Shown piece by piece: positions 14,658 to 42,376 of a DNA stretch of 64,000 nt (its first letter is position 1; each line of letters opens with the position of its first letter). The position numbers and the translations under genes are program-made. This stretch comes from an uncultured bacterium (GTDB lineage Bacteria; Patescibacteriota; Dojkabacteria; J137). The notes under the pieces were generated by a model that saw only the letters and a list, made by a program, of their open reading frames with translations, was not told the DNA's origin and did not search any database. The stretch is taken from positions 1,064,690 to 1,128,689 of the forward strand of contig OY969472.1 of the NCBI GenBank assembly GCA_963700155.1, in the 5' to 3' direction.

Positions 14658-14728
14658 GCGAGATTAGTACAGTGGTAGTACATCGGCTTCCCAAGCCGGA
14701 GACGCGAGTTCGAGCCTCGTATCTCGCT
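14658..14728 (+). tRNA. tRNA-Gly (anticodon CCC)
   Basis: Hand-folded cloverleaf: acceptor GCGAGAU/AUCUCGC, anticodon loop UUCCCAA, T-loop UUCGAGC, discriminator U. No encoded CCA. Confidence 0.85.
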
Positions 14729-26340: not shown

Positions 26341-27603
26341 TTAAGAAATTACTTCTTTACCCATATATTTTTGTAATACTTCTGGAATTCTAATTGTTCC
26401 ATCAATTTGCTGAAAATTTTCCATTATTGCAATAGGAAATCTTGACATAACTATCGCTGTACCATTAAGCATATGAACATAGTCTAGTTTTCCTTCAGAA
26501 TTTCGATACTTAATATTAAGATTCCTAGCTTGATAATCTGTGCAATTCGAAGTCGATGTTATTTCTCCATAATCATTTCTTCCGGGCATCCAGGCTTCAA
26601 TATCATAAGTTTTTGCTGAACTTGTTCCCATATCACCTGTACATTGCTGAACTACTCTATATGGTATTCCTAAACTTTGTATAATTTCTTCTTCATTAGC
26701 TAGCAATTCTTGATGCAAATTTTCTGAGTCTTCAGGTTTACAGTAAATGAACATTTCTAATTTTGTAAACTGGTGAACTCTATATAGACCTTTCGAATAT
26801 TTACCATATGCTCCTGCTTCTTTTCTAAAACAGTGAGATATTGCAGCGAATTTCATTGGTAGATTTTTCCCATCTATTATCTCATCAGCATACATTCCGG
26901 CCATTGTCACTTCGGCTGTGGCGATGAGGCCAAGATCTTCTCCATCAATTTCGTACGTTTGAGCCTCATCGCCTCTAGGAGAATATCCTGTTCCTAAATA
27001 ATATCTTGATTTAGCTAAATCTGGTGTTGTGACCAATGTATATCCCTTTTTCTCTAGAAATTCTAAACCATATTGAATTAGTGCGTATTCTAATTTAACT
27101 GCATCCCCTTTAAGATAATAAAATTGAGATCCAGCAACCTTTGCTCCGGAGTCAAAATCTAATATTCCTAGTTTTTTACCAATATCAAGATGACTTTTTG
27201 GTTCAAATTTAAATTCTGTCTTTTCACCAACTTTTCTTAATTCTTTATTGTCTTCACTAGTTTTTCCTATTGATACATCAGCCATAGTCATATTAGGAAT
27301 TTGGCTTATCAAATCATTCCATTTTATTGTTAGTTCTCTATAATTCTCTTCTTCAACTTTTATATCTATACTATTCCTTAATTCTACAGCCATTCTTTTT
27401 GCTTCTTCTGGATTAGTTTTCCCGATATTTGATATCTCATTTCTTTTAGCATTATGGTTTCCAATTTTCGATTGAACTTCTTTTCTAGTTTGATTTACTA
27501 ATAGCCAGTCATCGACAATAATTTCTTTTCCCACTCCATATCTGTTAATCATATTCTGCTTAATTTTTTCAACATTTTCGGTAATAAATTTTGGATCTAA
27601 CAT
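26341..27603 (-). CDS. serS: serine--tRNA ligase
   Basis: N-terminal coiled-coil arm plus a class II core (motif 2 FRKEAG, motif 3 region); 420 aa. Confidence 0.9.
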   Translation of the reverse strand: MLDPKFITENVEKIKQNMINRYGVGKEIIVDDWLLVNQTRKEVQSKIGNHNAKRNEISNIGKTNPEEAKRMAVELRNSIDIKVEEENYRELTIKWNDLISQIPNMTMADVSIGKTSEDNKELRKVGEKTEFKFEPKSHLDIGKKLGILDFDSGAKVAGSQFYYLKGDAVKLEYALIQYGLEFLEKKGYTLVTTPDLAKSRYYLGTGYSPRGDEAQTYEIDGEDLGLIATAEVTMAGMYADEIIDGKNLPMKFAAISHCFRKEAGAYGKYSKGLYRVHQFTKLEMFIYCKPEDSENLHQELLANEEEIIQSLGIPYRVVQQCTGDMGTSSAKTYDIEAWMPGRNDYGEITSTSNCTDYQARNLNIKYRNSEGKLDYVHMLNGTAIVMSRFPIAIMENFQQIDGTIRIPEVLQKYMGKEVIS

Positions 27604-27779
27604 TTGAGTAATTTAACAGTTATGAATTGTACTGTTTGAATTTTAAAATATTTTATTAAAAAAAGATATGTACTATATTAACTAATTGAATGATTTCTTT
27701 TAAATTATTGTTATAAGGCTTTGAATTCCTAGTTATAAATATACCAAAAGATAGTTAAGCTATTTACTAATTTAGTTTT

Positions 27780-27947
27780 AAAATATATAATTATTATGAC
27801 TTTGAAGTTCTTTGGCAAGACTGAGTCATACAAACTAAATAAAGCTGTCTCAAGAAGTTGAGAAATTAAGGTGGAACCGCGGGAAACCGTCCTTAAAATA
27901 TAATAATTTATATTTTGAGGACGGTTTTTTATTTTTAAAATTTGGTA
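27780..27947 (+). promoter_or_regulatory. T-box riboswitch leader, glyQS type, glycine specifier GGC
   Basis: Stem I (AUGACU...AGUCAU at 27796-27829) contains GGCA in the specifier position (27814-27817). A short linker and a stem III hairpin (UCUCAA-GAAG-UUGAGA) follow. The T-box sequence AAUUAAGGUGGAACCGCGGG matches the consensus AGGGUGGNACCGCG, and its UGGA pairs with the U73-CCA of tRNA-Gly. The terminator CCGUCCUUAAAAUAUAA...UUAUAUUUUGAGGACGG plus U6 lies at 27885-27947. There is no stem II, as in glyQS T-boxes. Confidence 0.6.
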
Positions 27948-27988
27948 TCCATATATAAGAATTATTCAATAGTTTTTAGTTAGAATTT

Positions 27989-28741
27989 ATGAAAACAGTA
28001 AAAGATTTTTTTAAGGAAGTTAAAGATAAGCCTTCTGTAACTGATGCATACGTACTATATTTAAAAGGTATAGAACAAACTGGTGGTGAATATCCTGAAG
28101 TATATTTAAGTGGAGCATTAACTAGTGGTGGGTTTAGAAGGGATGAAAAATTAAGTTGGGATGAAGGATTTATTAAAAATGCTGAGCTATCTGCACAAAT
28201 AAGGAAAGCTTTATACGTATATAACTTATTGGATAAAAATAAGTTAATATTCTTCCCTGGAGATACAGCTACTTTCAATGGTTGGCATCAATTCGAATTT
28301 AATCTTTTTTTTGGATTAACTATAATAAATATAACAAATATTGAAGATGTCAATAATTTAGTGGAGACAGCCAAAAAAGTTGTCGATATGTACGGATTTG
28401 TTAATGATAGAGCTACACGTGACGATCGAATCCATAGTTATAAGAGTCTTTTAGATTTTTTTGAAAATTATATTAAAGAAAATGATATCGAGATTCAACC
28501 AGTCAAAGAGATTATTCAGATATTAGATAATGATATGTCACTTGGAGCTTGGTACGAGGTAGAACTGGCTAAATATTTTAGAGCAAGAGTTTTAAGAGTT
28601 AAGGTTAATACTAAATATAATTCAAATGATTCACTAATTTCAGATATTATAAGTAAGGTTGATTCACTAAAGGTACTTGATGTTGATTTCTTTGATGGTA
28701 ATTCTGAACAAAGCAAACCTATTTATTTAGTAGAAATATGA
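27989..28741 (+). CDS. hypothetical protein (250 aa) directly downstream of the Gly T-box
   Basis: Good ORF with no recognisable family; YLSGALTSGGFRRDE motif. Sits between the T-box terminator and glyQS. Confidence 0.45.
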   Translation: MKTVKDFFKEVKDKPSVTDAYVLYLKGIEQTGGEYPEVYLSGALTSGGFRRDEKLSWDEGFIKNAELSAQIRKALYVYNLLDKNKLIFFPGDTATFNGWHQFEFNLFFGLTIINITNIEDVNNLVETAKKVVDMYGFVNDRATRDDRIHSYKSLLDFFENYIKENDIEIQPVKEIIQILDNDMSLGAWYEVELAKYFRARVLRVKVNTKYNSNDSLISDIISKVDSLKVLDVDFFDGNSEQSKPIYLVEI

Positions 28742-28839
28742 AATTATAAAAAATTGATTTCAAAATAAGCTTTATACCTAAATGTATATTTTCAAACTGA
28801 TTTGCATTAAACTTTTATTATAAATTTTAAATATTAAAT

Positions 28840-30225
28840 ATGAATACTGAAATTACTTTAGAAAAAATCGTTGCATGGTCAAAAAGACGAGGTTTTATTT
28901 TCCCATCTTCAGAAATTTATGGTGGGATGGCAAATGTCTATGATTTTGGACCTTACGGAACATTATTAAAAGAAAATTTAAGAAATTTATGGCTAAAGAA
29001 TTTTGTTTACGATCGTGAAGATATTTATGCAATTGATAGTAGCGTTATTTTAAACCCAAAAGTGTGGGAAGCAAGTGGACATACAACTAGTTTTGCTGAT
29101 GTAATGGTTGAGGATAAAGTAAGTCATAAACGATTTAGAGCTGATCATATTATAGAAGACTATTATCTAAGAAGAAATCAAGATGTGAAAGTAGACGGTA
29201 AAACACCAGAAGAATTAGCAGAAATAATTAAAGAAAATAATATTAAATCTCCTGATGGTAACGAACTTACTGAGCCAAAAAGATTTAACCAGCTTTTCCA
29301 GACTGAAGTCGGAATTATTGCTGGAGAAAAAAATAAAACATATCTTAGAGGAGAAATTGCACAAGGTTTGTTTATGAATTTTAAAAACATTCTTGACTCA
29401 TTACATCCTAAACTACCTTTTGGAATTGGTCAGGCTGGGAAAGCTTTTAGAAACGAAATAACAATGGGGAAGTTCACTTTTAGAACTTTGGAATTTGATT
29501 TAATGGAGTTTGAATACTTTTTTGACAAAGATAAGCAAAATTGGAAAGAATTATTTGAATATTGGAAAGATCAAATGAATAAATTTGCAGAAATTATTGG
29601 ATTAGAAAAAGAAAATTTAAGATGGAGGGAACATGAAGATTTTGAACGATCGCATTACTCCACTAGAACTGAAGATTTAGAGTATAAATTTCCGTGGGGA
29701 TTCAAGGAAATGTGGGGATTAGCATATAGAACAGATTATGATTTAAAAAATCATCAGGAAAAATCCGGAAAAGATTTAAGATACACATATCCCGATGGTA
29801 AAAAGATACTACCACATGTAATTGAACCAACCTTTGGTTTATCAAGATTGATAACAGTTTTAGTATTTGATTCATACAGAGAGGAAGAAGTTAATAGTAA
29901 AACAAGAGTGTATTTAAAATTCAAACCATCTATTGCTCCAATAAAATTTGCGGTTTTTCCTTTACAAAAAGACGAAAAACTTAGAGAGTTCGCAAAAAAT
30001 TTATACACTGATTTAAGAAAAGATTTTATTGGTGAATTTGATGATTCAGGTAATATTGGGAAAATGTACAGAAAGCAGGATGAAATTGGAACACCTTTTT
30101 GTATAACTGTAGATTATGAAAGTTTGAATGATAAAGCGGTAACAATTAGAGACAGGGATACTATGCAGCAAGAAAGAATTTCAATTGATAAATTGAAAGA
30201 TTATATTAAAACAAATTTAAAATAA
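28840..30225 (+). CDS. glyQS: glycine--tRNA ligase (alpha2 homodimeric type)
   Basis: N-terminus EKIVAWSKRRGFIFPSSEIYGG..N.YD.GP.G is typical of alpha2 GlyRS; class II motifs; C-terminal anticodon-binding domain. Confidence 0.85.
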   Translation: MNTEITLEKIVAWSKRRGFIFPSSEIYGGMANVYDFGPYGTLLKENLRNLWLKNFVYDREDIYAIDSSVILNPKVWEASGHTTSFADVMVEDKVSHKRFRADHIIEDYYLRRNQDVKVDGKTPEELAEIIKENNIKSPDGNELTEPKRFNQLFQTEVGIIAGEKNKTYLRGEIAQGLFMNFKNILDSLHPKLPFGIGQAGKAFRNEITMGKFTFRTLEFDLMEFEYFFDKDKQNWKELFEYWKDQMNKFAEIIGLEKENLRWREHEDFERSHYSTRTEDLEYKFPWGFKEMWGLAYRTDYDLKNHQEKSGKDLRYTYPDGKKILPHVIEPTFGLSRLITVLVFDSYREEEVNSKTRVYLKFKPSIAPIKFAVFPLQKDEKLREFAKNLYTDLRKDFIGEFDDSGNIGKMYRKQDEIGTPFCITVDYESLNDKAVTIRDRDTMQQERISIDKLKDYIKTNLK

Positions 30226-30238
30226 TAAACTAAGAAGT

Positions 30239-31285
30239 TTAGTTAATCGTAAGTCTATACTTTGTACCTCTTCCTTGGCCTTCAATCTTAACTAGTTTTT
30301 TTCTTACAAGATCATTAAGGTCTCTAAATGCAGTCATTGTAGAAACTTCCATCATATGACAATAATCTTCACGTTTAATAGAAGGTACTGTTTGTAGGTA
30401 TCGTAAAACTTTAAGTTGTCTCTTATTTAAGTCTAAAAATGGTTGACTCTTTGATGTTTCCTCTTCTTTAATGAATTCTGAAATATTTTCTCTGGTTTCT
30501 AATTGTTCTTGTGTCAAGGTTTGTGTAAAAACTTCAAGCCAATTTGATATTTCAAAATTAGTTCGACTTATATTGTAAGCTTCTATTAATTTCTGCTCGT
30601 TATTATCAAAATTTCTTACTATAGAAGTAAAAACTCGGTATGATAGATTATTCTTATATAATAGATAATTTGCCAATGCAATTATTGTTACCTTATTTCC
30701 CGCAATAAATGGGTATAATTCAATTATTCTATAAATAAAAACACCAATCCTAATAATTGGAGTGACAGTTGGTGTTACATCTCGATACCACTGAATTACT
30801 TCGATAACCTCCTGTTCTAATCTTGCTGAATCTATATCTTTATCCCTTAACTCACTCCAATTATCAGTTGTAGTATCAATTTCATCACTAATATTTCTAA
30901 ACCTTGCTTCCCAATTTTCTTTCCAATCAGAAACAATCATTTTATGAATATGATTTACAATACTTAAATCTATTTCTGAATAACTCTCTGAAGCATTTGA
31001 TTGCGTAAAATCTATGAGATGTTTGAAATTAATTAATATTTGAAGTTTTATTGGATCAATACTTTCAATTGTCATTCCTGTGCTAAGCTTTTCAGCATCT
31101 TTTAAAGTTATTTCAACTCCTAAAATATGTGCTAAATGAAACATATCATATATTTTTGTTGAAAGATTCATTTTAAATTTAGAATCTTGTGATAAATCAA
31201 TATCTTGAAGTGTAGTTTTATAGTTTTCTAGTCTAACAAGTTCTGTAACTAGTTTATCAGTATATTTAAATTGAGGTTGATACAT
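30239..31285 (-). CDS. Fic/DOC-fold-like protein with degenerate active-site motif and C-terminal winged-helix DNA-binding domain
   Basis: YPFIAGNKVTII aligns to HPFx[DE]GNGRxxR, with His replaced by Tyr and GR replaced by KV. The preceding ...WEARFRN fits the Fic core. The C-terminus (LRYLQTVPSIKREDY...TAFRDLNDLVRKKLV) is a wHTH. The start is probably the internal ATG at 31285; the ORF-track start at 31366 adds an AT-rich hydrophobic artefact. Confidence 0.35.
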   Translation of the reverse strand: MYQPQFKYTDKLVTELVRLENYKTTLQDIDLSQDSKFKMNLSTKIYDMFHLAHILGVEITLKDAEKLSTGMTIESIDPIKLQILINFKHLIDFTQSNASESYSEIDLSIVNHIHKMIVSDWKENWEARFRNISDEIDTTTDNWSELRDKDIDSARLEQEVIEVIQWYRDVTPTVTPIIRIGVFIYRIIELYPFIAGNKVTIIALANYLLYKNNLSYRVFTSIVRNFDNNEQKLIEAYNISRTNFEISNWLEVFTQTLTQEQLETRENISEFIKEEETSKSQPFLDLNKRQLKVLRYLQTVPSIKREDYCHMMEVSTMTAFRDLNDLVRKKLVKIEGQGRGTKYRLTIN

Positions 31286-31394
31286 ATTAGAGATGATAAT
31301 ACATAAGTGATATTTAAATAATACTATAATGTTACGAAAAAGCAAAAAAATTAATTTAAGAATCACTATATGCTATATTCACTAAGTATAAAGT

Positions 31395-31467
31395 GCTGGC
31401 TTAGCTCAAATGGTAGAGCAACGGTATCGTAAACCGTAGGTTGTGAGTTCGATTCTCACAGCCAGCT
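31395..31467 (+). tRNA. tRNA-Thr (anticodon CGU)
   Basis: Acceptor GCUGGCU/AGCCAGC; anticodon stem ACGGU/ACCGU; loop AUCGUAA; T-arm GAGUUCGAUUCUC. Confidence 0.85.
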
Positions 31468-31489
31468 AATTAACTATTAATTCATAATT

Positions 31490-32614
31490 TTGGATTCATA
31501 TTTACACAAAAAAAGTGAAGACAAAATTTCAGAATACATAAAAATAATTTCTGTTCAGTTAGATATTAATTTAAAATTACTAGAGTCAATGATTAGTAAA
31601 TTTTTAATATCTGAAATACCTTCATTAAGTTATGAATATCAAACTGTCAATATTTATAATGAACAAAATAAACTAATTAAAATAAATTCATTAGAACTTC
31701 GAAATAAAATTAATATCTTGCTATTAGATATAAAAGATGTATCAAGCGAACAGTATGAACTTTATAATAATAAATTGTTTAAAATTTTTACTAAATTAGA
31801 TTTTGTTTCAAAAATAAATGATGAACTACTCATTCTTGAAGATTTGATTTTTTCAAGGCAACCAACTCAAAATCAAATATTACTTATTTTGAATGAAATT
31901 CAAAATTTTAACGACGAAGAGAATGATAGTTTTATTTCTAAAATATTTAGTTTAGTAGATGAATATCTATCAAAAAATAATTTTGAAATTGCACATATAA
32001 AAGTTACTTGGCAAAATTATTTATTAAATTATATTAAAAGTAATATTGAAAGAATATTTCAAGGTGATAAATCTTTGATTATTAATTTATCAATCGATGA
32101 TTTAGAAGAATTAATATATGAAAGTAATCTAATAGTAATCTTTTGTAATAAAATTGATATAGTTGAAATAAAAAAAATGTTAAAAAGTATAGTTTCAAGG
32201 AAATTAAAGTATATTAGGAAACAAGATGTTAAAGACGAAATAGATATCAACTTATTAGAAAGTTACTATAGTGAATTAAAAAGCGATTTATTAAATTACA
32301 ATCAAACTGTTTTAGTAGAAAAATTTAAACCTGAGTTTCTTGAATTAATTAATACTTTAGTAGATGAAGATGAATTACCAGATTATTATTTTTTATCTAG
32401 ATTAATAAAATTATCTAAAAATCTTTTATATTACAACGATCCAGATTCTTTAATTACTAAAAACATTGATAAAATTTTAAATATAATAATGTACTTTAAG
32501 AAGGAATATATTAAAAGACTTAGTAAAACAAAAAATAAAACTATAATATTCAAATATAGAAGTCATTTGGAGCAAATAGAAAATTTTCTAAATCTTTTAA
32601 ATAATGAAAACTAA
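31490..32614 (+). CDS. hypothetical protein
   Basis: 374 aa; overlaps the next gene by 11 bp, suggesting an operon. Confidence 0.4.
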   Translation: MDSYLHKKSEDKISEYIKIISVQLDINLKLLESMISKFLISEIPSLSYEYQTVNIYNEQNKLIKINSLELRNKINILLLDIKDVSSEQYELYNNKLFKIFTKLDFVSKINDELLILEDLIFSRQPTQNQILLILNEIQNFNDEENDSFISKIFSLVDEYLSKNNFEIAHIKVTWQNYLLNYIKSNIERIFQGDKSLIINLSIDDLEELIYESNLIVIFCNKIDIVEIKKMLKSIVSRKLKYIRKQDVKDEIDINLLESYYSELKSDLLNYNQTVLVEKFKPEFLELINTLVDEDELPDYYFLSRLIKLSKNLLYYNDPDSLITKNIDKILNIIMYFKKEYIKRLSKTKNKTIIFKYRSHLEQIENFLNLLNNEN

Positions 32615-42166: not shown

Positions 42167-42195
42167 ATTATTTTTTACACCAAAATTGTAAGAAA

Positions 42196-42268
42196 AGCGA
42201 ATGACGAGGCTCGAACTCGCAACCTCTTCCTTGGCAAGGAAGCGTTCTACCAATTGAACTACATTCGC
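42196..42268 (-). tRNA. tRNA-Gly (anticodon GCC)
   Basis: Reverse complement folds as GCGAAUG...; anticodon stem CUUCC/GGAAG; loop UUGCCAA; T-arm GCGAGUUCGAGCCUCGU; discriminator U. Confidence 0.85.
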
Positions 42269-42376
42269 TTGAATCTGCCTATAATTATAGCTAAGAGTTA
42301 CTGAATTTCCAATAATGTTTCTTATATTAAATTATTTATGTTTTAGATGTAAAATCCTATATAATTACTATTAATT

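Follow-up and report, generated by a model that had tools for sequence, protein, structure and literature searches.

A reduced, glycine-specific T-box leader predicted ahead of a conserved unannotated gene and glyS in a Dojkabacteria genome

Glycine-specific T-box riboswitches are known from the glyQS and glyQ genes of Bacillus, Geobacillus and Oceanobacillus (RF00230; 4LCK, 4MGN, 6PMO and 6POM, cited in PMC7583486). Glycine T-boxes lack Stem II and rely on the elbow-binding platform of a long Stem I (PMC7583486), and it is this long Stem I, with the AG bulge and distal loop that make up the platform, which defines the glyQS class (PMC7583486; PMC11404447). Glycyl T-box variants include some that have lost the kink-turn (K-turn) and some that have gained a Stem II, and the distal platform is kept in all of them (PMC11404447). 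In those actinobacterial leaders whose Stem I is naturally truncated, Stem II is essential (PMC7583486). The present report concerns a leader of about 140 nt (27795-27936) in a 64,000-nt stretch of an uncultured Dojkabacteria genome (GCA_963700155.1, contig OY969472.1; the whole 64-kb stretch is called the window), which precedes a 250-codon open reading frame (hereafter the ORF) and glyS, the gene for glycyl-tRNA synthetase (GlyRS). Judged from sequence comparison, the leader is probably (roughly 0.78) a working transcription-attenuation T-box for tRNA-Gly(GCC) that is built on a reduced plan, and it stands ahead of a conserved ORF resembling N-deoxyribosyltransferases (NDT-like) and glyS.

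The predicted fold of 27740-27940 is much more stable than those of shuffled sequence (z = -5.4), and the promoter and leader are made up of the following parts, all on the forward strand:

27763-27791 (+): sigma-70-like promoter, -35 box TTTACT (27763-27768), 17-nt spacer and -10 box TATAAT (27786-27791), 10 of 12 matches
27795-27830 (+): reduced Stem I hairpin of 36 nt, from direct reading, fold prediction and covariation in nine leaders
27795-27800 with 27825-27830 (+): C-stem, UAUGAC/GUCAUA
27801-27805 with 27823-27824 (+): K-turn signature, a 3-nt bulge UUU (27801-27803) and G27804-A27805 opposite G27823-A27824
27806-27809 with 27819-27822 (+): NC stem of 4 bp, AGUU/GACU
27810-27818 (+): 9-nt terminal loop, CUUUGGCAA
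27814-27817 (+): specifier GGC (Gly; 27814-27816) with the conserved 3' purine A27817
27831-27847 (+): A-rich linker of 17 nt, ending in the purine string AAAGCUG 5' of stem III
27848-27863 (+): stem III, UCUCAA GAAG UUGAGA, a covarying helix followed by AA (27864-27865)
27864-27894 (+): T-box sequence and antiterminator, from the RF00230 alignment, covariation in nine leaders and folding energy
27864-27881 (+): T-box sequence, AAUUAAGGUGGAACCGCG
27868-27871 with 27891-27894 (+): antiterminator helix A1
27872-27878 (+): 7-nt bulge, UGGAACC
27879-27882 with 27887-27890 (+): antiterminator helix A2, with the wobble G27879·U27890 at its base
27882-27936 (+): intrinsic terminator, a stem of about 20 bp (27882-27929) followed by a U tract

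The specifier stands 1 nt from the loop-closing pair, in a terminal loop rather than an internal one. On the predicted fold its placement relative to the lower helix is the same as that of the specifier in ordinary T-boxes, and the window loop closes where an ordinary Stem I runs on for roughly 60 more nucleotides. Neither an AG bulge (AGNGA) nor a distal-loop motif was found between the promoter and stem III in the leader sequence and its fold, and the linker from Stem I to stem III, only 17 nt long, is too short for Stem II or a IIA/B pseudoknot. The linkers of related leaders measure 13-21 nt. The position of the promoter is predicted to set the 5' end of the RNA at the base of Stem I or a few nucleotides from it. 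Promoter-like boxes lie directly 5' of the C-stem in every related leader examined, some with a -35 box TTGACA, and the -10 box, read directly, ends about 3-16 nt ahead of the C-stem. No upstream RNA element can be hidden there. The putative K-turn (a 3-nt bulge and GA opposite GA, next to a C-G pair) can be read directly in the window leader and seven relatives, and in all eight the 5' strand carries NNN-GA and the 3' strand GA beside a C-G or U·G pair.

The discriminator half of the leader is orthodox, with a purine string, stem III, AA, helix A1, the UGGAACC bulge and an A2 helix with its G·U pair; the motif RRRxG-stem III-AA has been described for T-boxes (PMC7583486). Within the UGGA of the bulge, the A matches the discriminator U of both tRNA-Gly genes in the window. 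The 5' arm of the terminator holds the 3' strands of A2 and A1, so that terminator and antiterminator are mutually exclusive, and the computed energies of the two conformers (-30.0 kcal/mol for the terminator versus -6.6 kcal/mol for the antiterminator) make termination the default state. This terminator is the only terminator-like site within 27000-31500. A terminator that overlaps the antiterminator was seen in all eight related leaders that were read, save L011, which is unclear (L numbers denote relatives' loci, and P numbers below denote ORF homologues). In the window (27941-27948) and in L081 (about 1985-1995), the stretch from the terminator to the start of the ORF includes the motif UUUGGUAU(C/A)CA; L082 and L083 lack this motif, their start codon coming immediately after the U tract.

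Related leaders were first found by a T-box motif search just 5' of glyS in 80 GlyRS loci drawn from 185,579 species-representative genomes. The nearest GlyRS genes in these genomes belong to metagenome-assembled genomes (MAGs) and are 56-74% identical to GlyRS of the window. The MAGs are labelled mostly as Candidatus Dojkabacteria, and also as Saccharibacteria, Doudnabacteria, Roizmanbacteria, Levybacteria, Microgenomates and Patescibacteria group, these lineage labels being the submitters' own and some of them clearly mis-binned (e.g. 'Gammaproteobacteria'). Nine leaders were aligned (window, L081, L083, L001, L076, L041, L048, L023 and L011). In the six loci that came from the genome scan, GlyRS is 59-74% identical to that of the window, and in L081 and L083 it is 46-54% identical. 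A covariance model, R1, built from the nine leaders scores the window leader at 97.3 bits. RNAalifold alone recovered five helices in the nine leaders, namely the C-stem, NC stem, stem III, A1 and A2. In the model-based alignment 92.1% of cells are paired against 69.2 ± 2.1% in 500 shuffles, none of which attains that figure, and no more than 52.2% on sliding the pairing partners, although the observed values are somewhat favoured as the seed alignment and the structure come from the same nine sequences. Compensatory changes on both sides occur at 18 of the 24 pairs, with many distinct pair types per position; they affect four of five pairs of the C-stem, five of five of the NC stem and five of five of stem III, which is 95.6% paired. 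The G·U wobble of A2 is invariant (9/9). The loop triplet is GGC in seven of the nine leaders and GGA in two (L023 and L076), with an A following in all, so the specifier assignment of the sequence-only reading, made from the window's letters without database searches, holds in the covariance alignment, where a Gly codon occupies the same loop position in 9/9 leaders. Wider relatives, too, always have a Gly codon as the triplet (GGC, GGA or GGU), in most cases with an A after it, and their T-box bulge has UGGA or UGGG, which matches U73. Insertions of about 30-55 nt are present in the A2 loop of L011 (3745-3795), L023 (3050-3080) and L029 (3870-3900), and recall the lineage-specific 'stem Sa' insertion of staphylococcal glyS T-boxes (PMC9177973).

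Codon, discriminator match, terminator/antiterminator switch and covariation all agree with the earlier view of this leader as a glycine-specific, transcriptional T-box. The elements which that view had named, the GGC-A specifier, stem III, the lack of Stem II, UGGA against U73 and a strong terminator, are all where it had placed them.

A scan of the whole window against Rfam at gathering thresholds returned four tRNAs only and no T-box. A sensitive search of 401 nt (27600-28000) gave RF00230, the T-box family, at 27745-27897 (+) with 35.7 bits and E 1.8e-6, the only plausible Rfam family match to the leader; the family match that had been proposed as a check is there, at a score under the gathering score of 93. 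The 3' half of the alignment is convincing, whereas 86 stem I positions of the model are deleted and its 'stem I' is put upstream of the promoter, where Rfam uses a hairpin, AGAUAGU-UAA-GCUAUUU (27749-27765), as the T-box stem I base. This hairpin was considered as a relic of the distal platform and rejected, since it lies upstream of or overlaps the -35 box, has no AGNGA or loop consensus and is not conserved in L081-L083. Relatives of the window's own type (group 1) that were tested score 33.6-46.3 bits with RF00230, and four tested leaders of a second type, described below, are undetected at E <= 0.01, so that routine annotation would miss all these leaders. Among the 80 genome loci, 23 have an R1 match at E <= 0.1 immediately 5' of glyS, and in two more, L002 and L027, the match is separated from glyS by a gene (25/80 in total), all of these loci being from genomes labelled as MAGs; a distant match in L037 (E 0.67) was ignored. 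No second T-box, for example upstream of the divergent serS gene, was found in the window at E <= 1 with the sensitive Rfam scan or R1. In the literature searched, no paper was found that connects T-boxes with the Candidate Phyla Radiation, Patescibacteria or the names of single phyla, in line with the earlier remark that a T-box in such a lineage is noteworthy in itself.

A second reduced T-box type, examined by a motif-anchored scan, is present 5' of glyS in sister genomes (L004-L007, L009, L010, L012, L013, L018, L020, L029, L047, L057, L002 and L003). It sits about 60-110 nt upstream of the T-box sequence (e.g. L005:3860-3960 and L006:1185-1295) and comprises a -10-like box, within 5-9 nt an AGNGA, then a covarying helix of 5-7 bp and a loop such as GAUAGUGAAAA; L004, L005, L006, L009 and L010 have the -35 box TTGCAA. 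[quoted passage not shown] Leaders of this type are without the K-turn and the 5' strand of the lower Stem I, and their loss is thus the complement of that in the window leader.

Two tRNA-Gly genes were identified in the window with ARAGORN and Rfam:

14658-14728 (+): tRNA-Gly(CCC)
42195-42269 (-): tRNA-Gly(GCC), the predicted ligand, whose anticodon GCC pairs with GGC and which has U73

Both genes end in a discriminator U and leave the 3' CCA unencoded (the next bases are AAT and TTT), so the NCCA end read by the T-box must be added post-transcriptionally. The specifier lies within UUGGCA (27812-27817, with UU at 27812-27813), which is complementary to positions 33-38 of tRNA-Gly(GCC), UGCCAA, and the predicted duplex energy of this pairing is -6.8 kcal/mol compared with -2.6 kcal/mol for GGC:GCC alone. 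In glyQS of Listeria the codon neighbours are A and G rather than UU (PMC11404447). On these sequence comparisons, the extended loop-loop pairing together with a strong GGC:GCC duplex may offset the missing platform and Stem II.

It is proposed that the RNA would start at the 36-nt hairpin, in which no more than the proximal portion of Stem I remains (C-stem, K-turn and lower helix) and which presents GGC-A in its terminal loop, and that the 17-nt linker would connect the hairpin with a discriminator domain of the standard kind. The -30 kcal/mol terminator would form by default, and transcription would halt at about 27936. When uncharged tRNA-Gly is present, its anticodon would pair with the loop and its free NCCA end with UGGA, and this pairing would stabilise the -6.6 kcal/mol antiterminator and let RNA polymerase read into the ORF and, most likely, glyS. 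The ORF would then be induced together with GlyRS on glycine starvation; its induction by uncharged tRNA-Gly, already suggested by the sequence-only reading, is a reasonable prediction.

The window leader shares with the glyQS/glyQ T-boxes a GGC specifier followed by a purine, the K-turn signature at the base of Stem I, the lack of Stem II, the succession of purine string, stem III and AA, the 7-nt UGGN-ACC bulge fitted to the discriminator, the G·U pair at the base of A2 and, as predicted from its sequence, transcriptional attenuation and the regulation of GlyRS. It differs from them in its terminal specifier loop, in its length of about 140 nt and in that the first gene of the operon does not encode GlyRS. 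Actinobacterial ileS T-boxes with an ultrashort or short Stem I (Mycobacterium and Nocardia; 6UFG and 6UFM, cited in PMC7583486) are like the window leader in having a truncated Stem I and a K-turn and in lacking the elbow platform. Unlike it, they need the S-turn of Stem II and a IIA/B pseudoknot, neither of which is present in the 17-nt linker of the window leader, and they are translational, acting through a sequestrator, and specific for Ile, whereas the window leader has an intrinsic terminator and is Gly-specific. The leader has the marks of a T-box, namely the NCCA-pairing bulge, the exclusive terminator, the Gly specifier with its purine and the K-turn signature. Of the glyQS class it has the absence of Stem II and pseudoknot and lacks the distal platform, and with no room for Stem II and an intrinsic terminator it falls outside the actinobacterial ultrashort-Stem-I translational class. 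Neither platform nor Stem II is found in the window leader or its eight relatives.

Downstream of the terminator the operon continues as follows:

27989-28741 (+): ORF of 250 codons, unannotated family, from the open frame, homologues and an AlphaFold2 (AF2) model
28742-28839 (+): ORF-glyS spacer of 98 nt, free of terminator-like sites and without a significant fold (z = -0.95)
28840-30225 (+): glyS, glycine--tRNA ligase of the dimeric (alpha2) type, 461 aa (NF003211, 583 bits, cutoff 312; TIGR00389, 488 bits, cutoff 243)

The ORF and glyS are likely to be co-transcribed. The order T-box, ORF, glyS recurs in L081 and L082, and in L083 the order is T-box, a 281-aa hydrophobic and probably membrane protein, ORF and glyS, with overlapping stop and start codons ahead of the ORF. 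These loci encode the three close homologues of the ORF, and their place next to glyS and a T-box answers the earlier question of whether such homologues recur there. GlyRS of L081, L082 and L083 is 46-54% identical to that of the window. The ORF is encoded in none of the 80 genome loci, though their GlyRS is closer to the window's (56-74%). The linkage of T-box, ORF and glyS thus spans more divergence than do many lineages without the ORF, which argues for its retention. The next-closest homologue, P0005 (L086), is not near glyS, and more distant homologues, which show no link to glyS, have as neighbours an ATP synthase operon, a cluster of ribosomal-protein genes or unknown genes. One of these, P0049 (264 aa), follows by 1 nt a 461-aa protein without a Pfam match (L084:4614-6795 and L085:106-2287); the pair, which may constitute a two-gene module, follows a ribosomal-protein/rpoA cluster and precedes a class I aminoacyl-tRNA synthetase gene (tRNA-synt_1b).

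In most loci the slot between T-box and glyS is empty. Elsewhere it holds a GNAT acetyltransferase (L002:3355-3984; Acetyltransf_3, E 1.7e-17), a Ham1/ITPase (L027:844-1428; E 1.2e-31), the 281-aa protein mentioned above, which has no family match (L083:3159-4004), or about 900 nt without an ORF of at least 60 aa (L023:3090-4000). The ORF-glyS spacer contains a block at about 28768-28815 (AGCUUUAUACCUAAAUGUAUAUUUUCAAACU...) that is conserved with L081:2840-2885 and L083:4810-4850 and has the consensus (G/A)GCUUUAU(G/A)CCUA...AUAUUUUCAAACU, while the flanking proteins are only 35-54% identical; the spacer of L082 is only 20 nt long.

At the composition of the window (28% GC) an open frame of 250 codons is expected by chance with a probability of about 6e-10. 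The ORF protein has no Pfam or NCBIfam match at E <= 0.1 and no significant PHROG match. A word-indexed search for homologues returned only the protein itself and a family-profile version four proteins, and a full HMMER scan of 1.84 billion representatives (E <= 1e-3) was needed to recover 55 clusters. Three homologues, of 252-253 aa, are close, aligning over their full length at 35-47% identity, and the remaining clusters are 22-31% identical, so what had been noted as an uncharacterised 250-aa protein between leader and GlyRS gene belongs to a conserved family. G186 and E190 are invariant in the family alignment, and Y21, Y39, T45, G48, N64, W99, Y151, D180 and L185 nearly so. The family motifs are YLSxAITSGG, GWxQxDYxxFW and LxDxxxSLGxxxE, which in the window protein take the form of YLSGALTSGG (39-48), GW (98-99), D180 and SLG...E190.

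An AF2 model made with the family alignment has an alpha/beta fold and is confident (pLDDT 95.8, pTM 0.92), whereas a single-sequence model (pLDDT 45) was unusable. Three of 48 relatives match DUF4406 (Pfam PF14359; best E 6.4e-4) and three of 48 match PHROG 355, nucleoside 2-deoxyribosyltransferase (best E 7.2e-6). A DUF4406 protein heads the fold matches in BFVD, a set of viral structures (E 0.036, probability 0.87), and several nucleoside deoxyribosyltransferase and SLOG-type proteins come next. Human DNPH1, its sequence verified against the Protein Data Bank (PDB), has YFCGSIRGG and SLGVGYELG, to which the ORF motifs are similar. With the N-deoxyribosyltransferase-like superfamily (DUF4406/PHROG 355/DNPH1/Rcl) the ORF protein has in common a strand and then a glycine-rich loop near the N-terminus, an invariant Glu in S-x-G-x3-E after a late strand and an alpha/beta predicted fold; unlike its members it is 250 aa long, about 100 residues larger, and has long helical insertions. 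On the basis of the model and these family resemblances, the ORF protein is probably a divergent, enlarged member of this superfamily (DUF4406/NDT/DNPH1-like), and as such would bind or cleave a nucleoside or nucleotide. The top Foldseek matches in the PDB (CARF ring nucleases, TIR and KaiC) were set aside as generic alpha/beta folds, and the family profile gave only a chance-level match, to protochlorophyllide reductase, among PDB sequences.

Several observations weigh against a working T-box of this design and against the proposed nature of its first gene. The RF00230 score is far under the family's gathering score, UU precedes the codon in only 19 of 27 leaders (which are related sequences and not independent counts), and a leader with neither platform nor Stem II is unprecedented and leaves its affinity for tRNA unexplained, truncated Stem I RNAs alone binding tRNA with barely detectable affinity in the systems studied (PMC7583486). 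The conserved spacer block may serve as an internal promoter or for processing of the RNA, the slot between T-box and glyS holds different genes in other lineages, and the fold assignment of the ORF protein rests on sub-threshold matches, with nothing at E < 0.1 in the Foldseek comparison with the PDB (best E 0.16) and a non-significant hhalign comparison of the family with human DNPH1 (probability 0.6%). The structure check proposed earlier therefore yielded a confident model and no significant fold match in the PDB. If the loss of both known auxiliary tRNA contacts and the weak binding of truncated Stem I are given most weight, the leader could be seen as a decaying relic that has ceased to sense tRNA and acts constitutively as a partial terminator or as a leaky attenuator, glyS being expressed from another site, perhaps from a promoter in the spacer block. 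A relic, however, would not be expected to retain its Gly codon, UGGA bulge and G·U wobble and a terminator that overlaps the antiterminator. Nor does a relic accord with the finding that nine leaders share the reduced architecture, with compensatory changes in each of its helices, although GlyRS is only 59-74% identical to that of the window in the six genome-scan loci and 46-54% in L081 and L083, and this explanation is considered improbable. Still less credible is the glyQS-class description given by the sequence-only reading, under which the leader would be an ordinary member of that class whose long Stem I and distal platform have merely diverged in an AT-rich genome. Its discriminator half, absent Stem II, K-turn and GGC-A are all glyQS-like, but Stem I is a 36-nt K-turn hairpin with the codon in its terminal loop and no AG bulge or distal-loop motif, 86 stem I positions of RF00230 are deleted in the alignment, the promoter lies right next to the hairpin, and the sister leaders that keep the AGNGA and GAUAGUGAAAA-type hairpin show what the motif looks like when present. 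The class assignment was accordingly abandoned, and a working T-box on a reduced plan is preferred to either alternative.

More tentative, and put at slightly under even odds as a joint proposal, is that these leaders represent an undescribed 'minimal' T-box class with a modular Stem I, and that they place an NDT-like family in a glycine-starvation regulon. Such a class would read tRNA-Gly by two contacts only, without platform or Stem II, the first being anticodon-loop kissing, extended to 5-6 bp by the pairing of UUGGCA with U33-A38, and the second the NCCA end. What the ORF contributes is a separate matter. It could be a passenger in a slot that accepts unrelated genes, in which case regulation by tRNA-Gly would be uninformative on its function, and this is nearly an even call: a GNAT protein, a Ham1 ITPase, a membrane protein, some 900 nt without an ORF or nothing at all can fill the slot, and distant family members are found in unrelated contexts. 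Yet the close subfamily occupies the slot in four of four cases, the window included, despite GlyRS identities of 46-54%, and loci with a GlyRS closer to the window's lack the ORF, which suggests that the linkage has been retained or has moved as a unit. The earlier suggestion of a glycine- or tRNA-Gly-related function thus survives weakly, carried by the linkage in three of three close homologues and set back by the other cargo of the slot and the unlinked distant homologues. A narrower proposal, that the ORF encodes a nucleotide-pool enzyme of the starvation response, an NDT/DNPH1/PpnN-like N-glycosidase induced with GlyRS on glycine shortage, is rather unlikely. The DUF4406/NDT fold and family hints, the likeness of Y-LSG-TSGG and SLG-x3-E to the human DNPH1 motifs and the presence of the nucleotide-cleansing enzyme Ham1 in the same slot of L027 speak for it, and such an enzyme would be analogous to PpnN-like nucleotide degradation in the stringent response; the DNPH1 profile comparison and the fold search in the PDB, neither of which is significant, speak against it.

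Divergent from the T-box promoter lies serS, encoding seryl-tRNA synthetase (26341-27603, -), a synteny that is also present in L082, and L081 has a partial tRNA-synt_2b gene upstream. Convergent with glyS, and 13 nt from its stop codon, is a gene for a 375-aa protein (30239-31366, -) that has a Fic/DOC domain (E 2.6e-7) and, at its C-terminus, a helix-turn-helix-like region, after which follows tRNA-Thr(CGU) at 31395-31467. Just downstream of glyS in L083 lies a bacterial RNase P RNA of class A (L083:6403-6777; 148.5 bits), which lacks one helix and carries an insertion of 90 nt at a site for which the model provides 15 nt.

According to current structural models, a T-box requires the Stem I platform or Stem II for holding tRNA (PMC7583486), and a conserved, covarying family with neither makes this view testable. 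With only about 100 nt of RNA, the reduced leader would be roughly the smallest natural tRNA-sensing switch. Standard annotation misses amino-acid-responsive regulation in these genomes, and the leader provides a regulatory handle on an unannotated family of 55 protein clusters with a confident predicted structure. If the proposal of a minimal class is true, the window leader and its sister leader types would represent a modular Stem I that has been dismantled in two different ways, and the leader would mark the unannotated NDT-like family as part of a glycine-starvation regulon.

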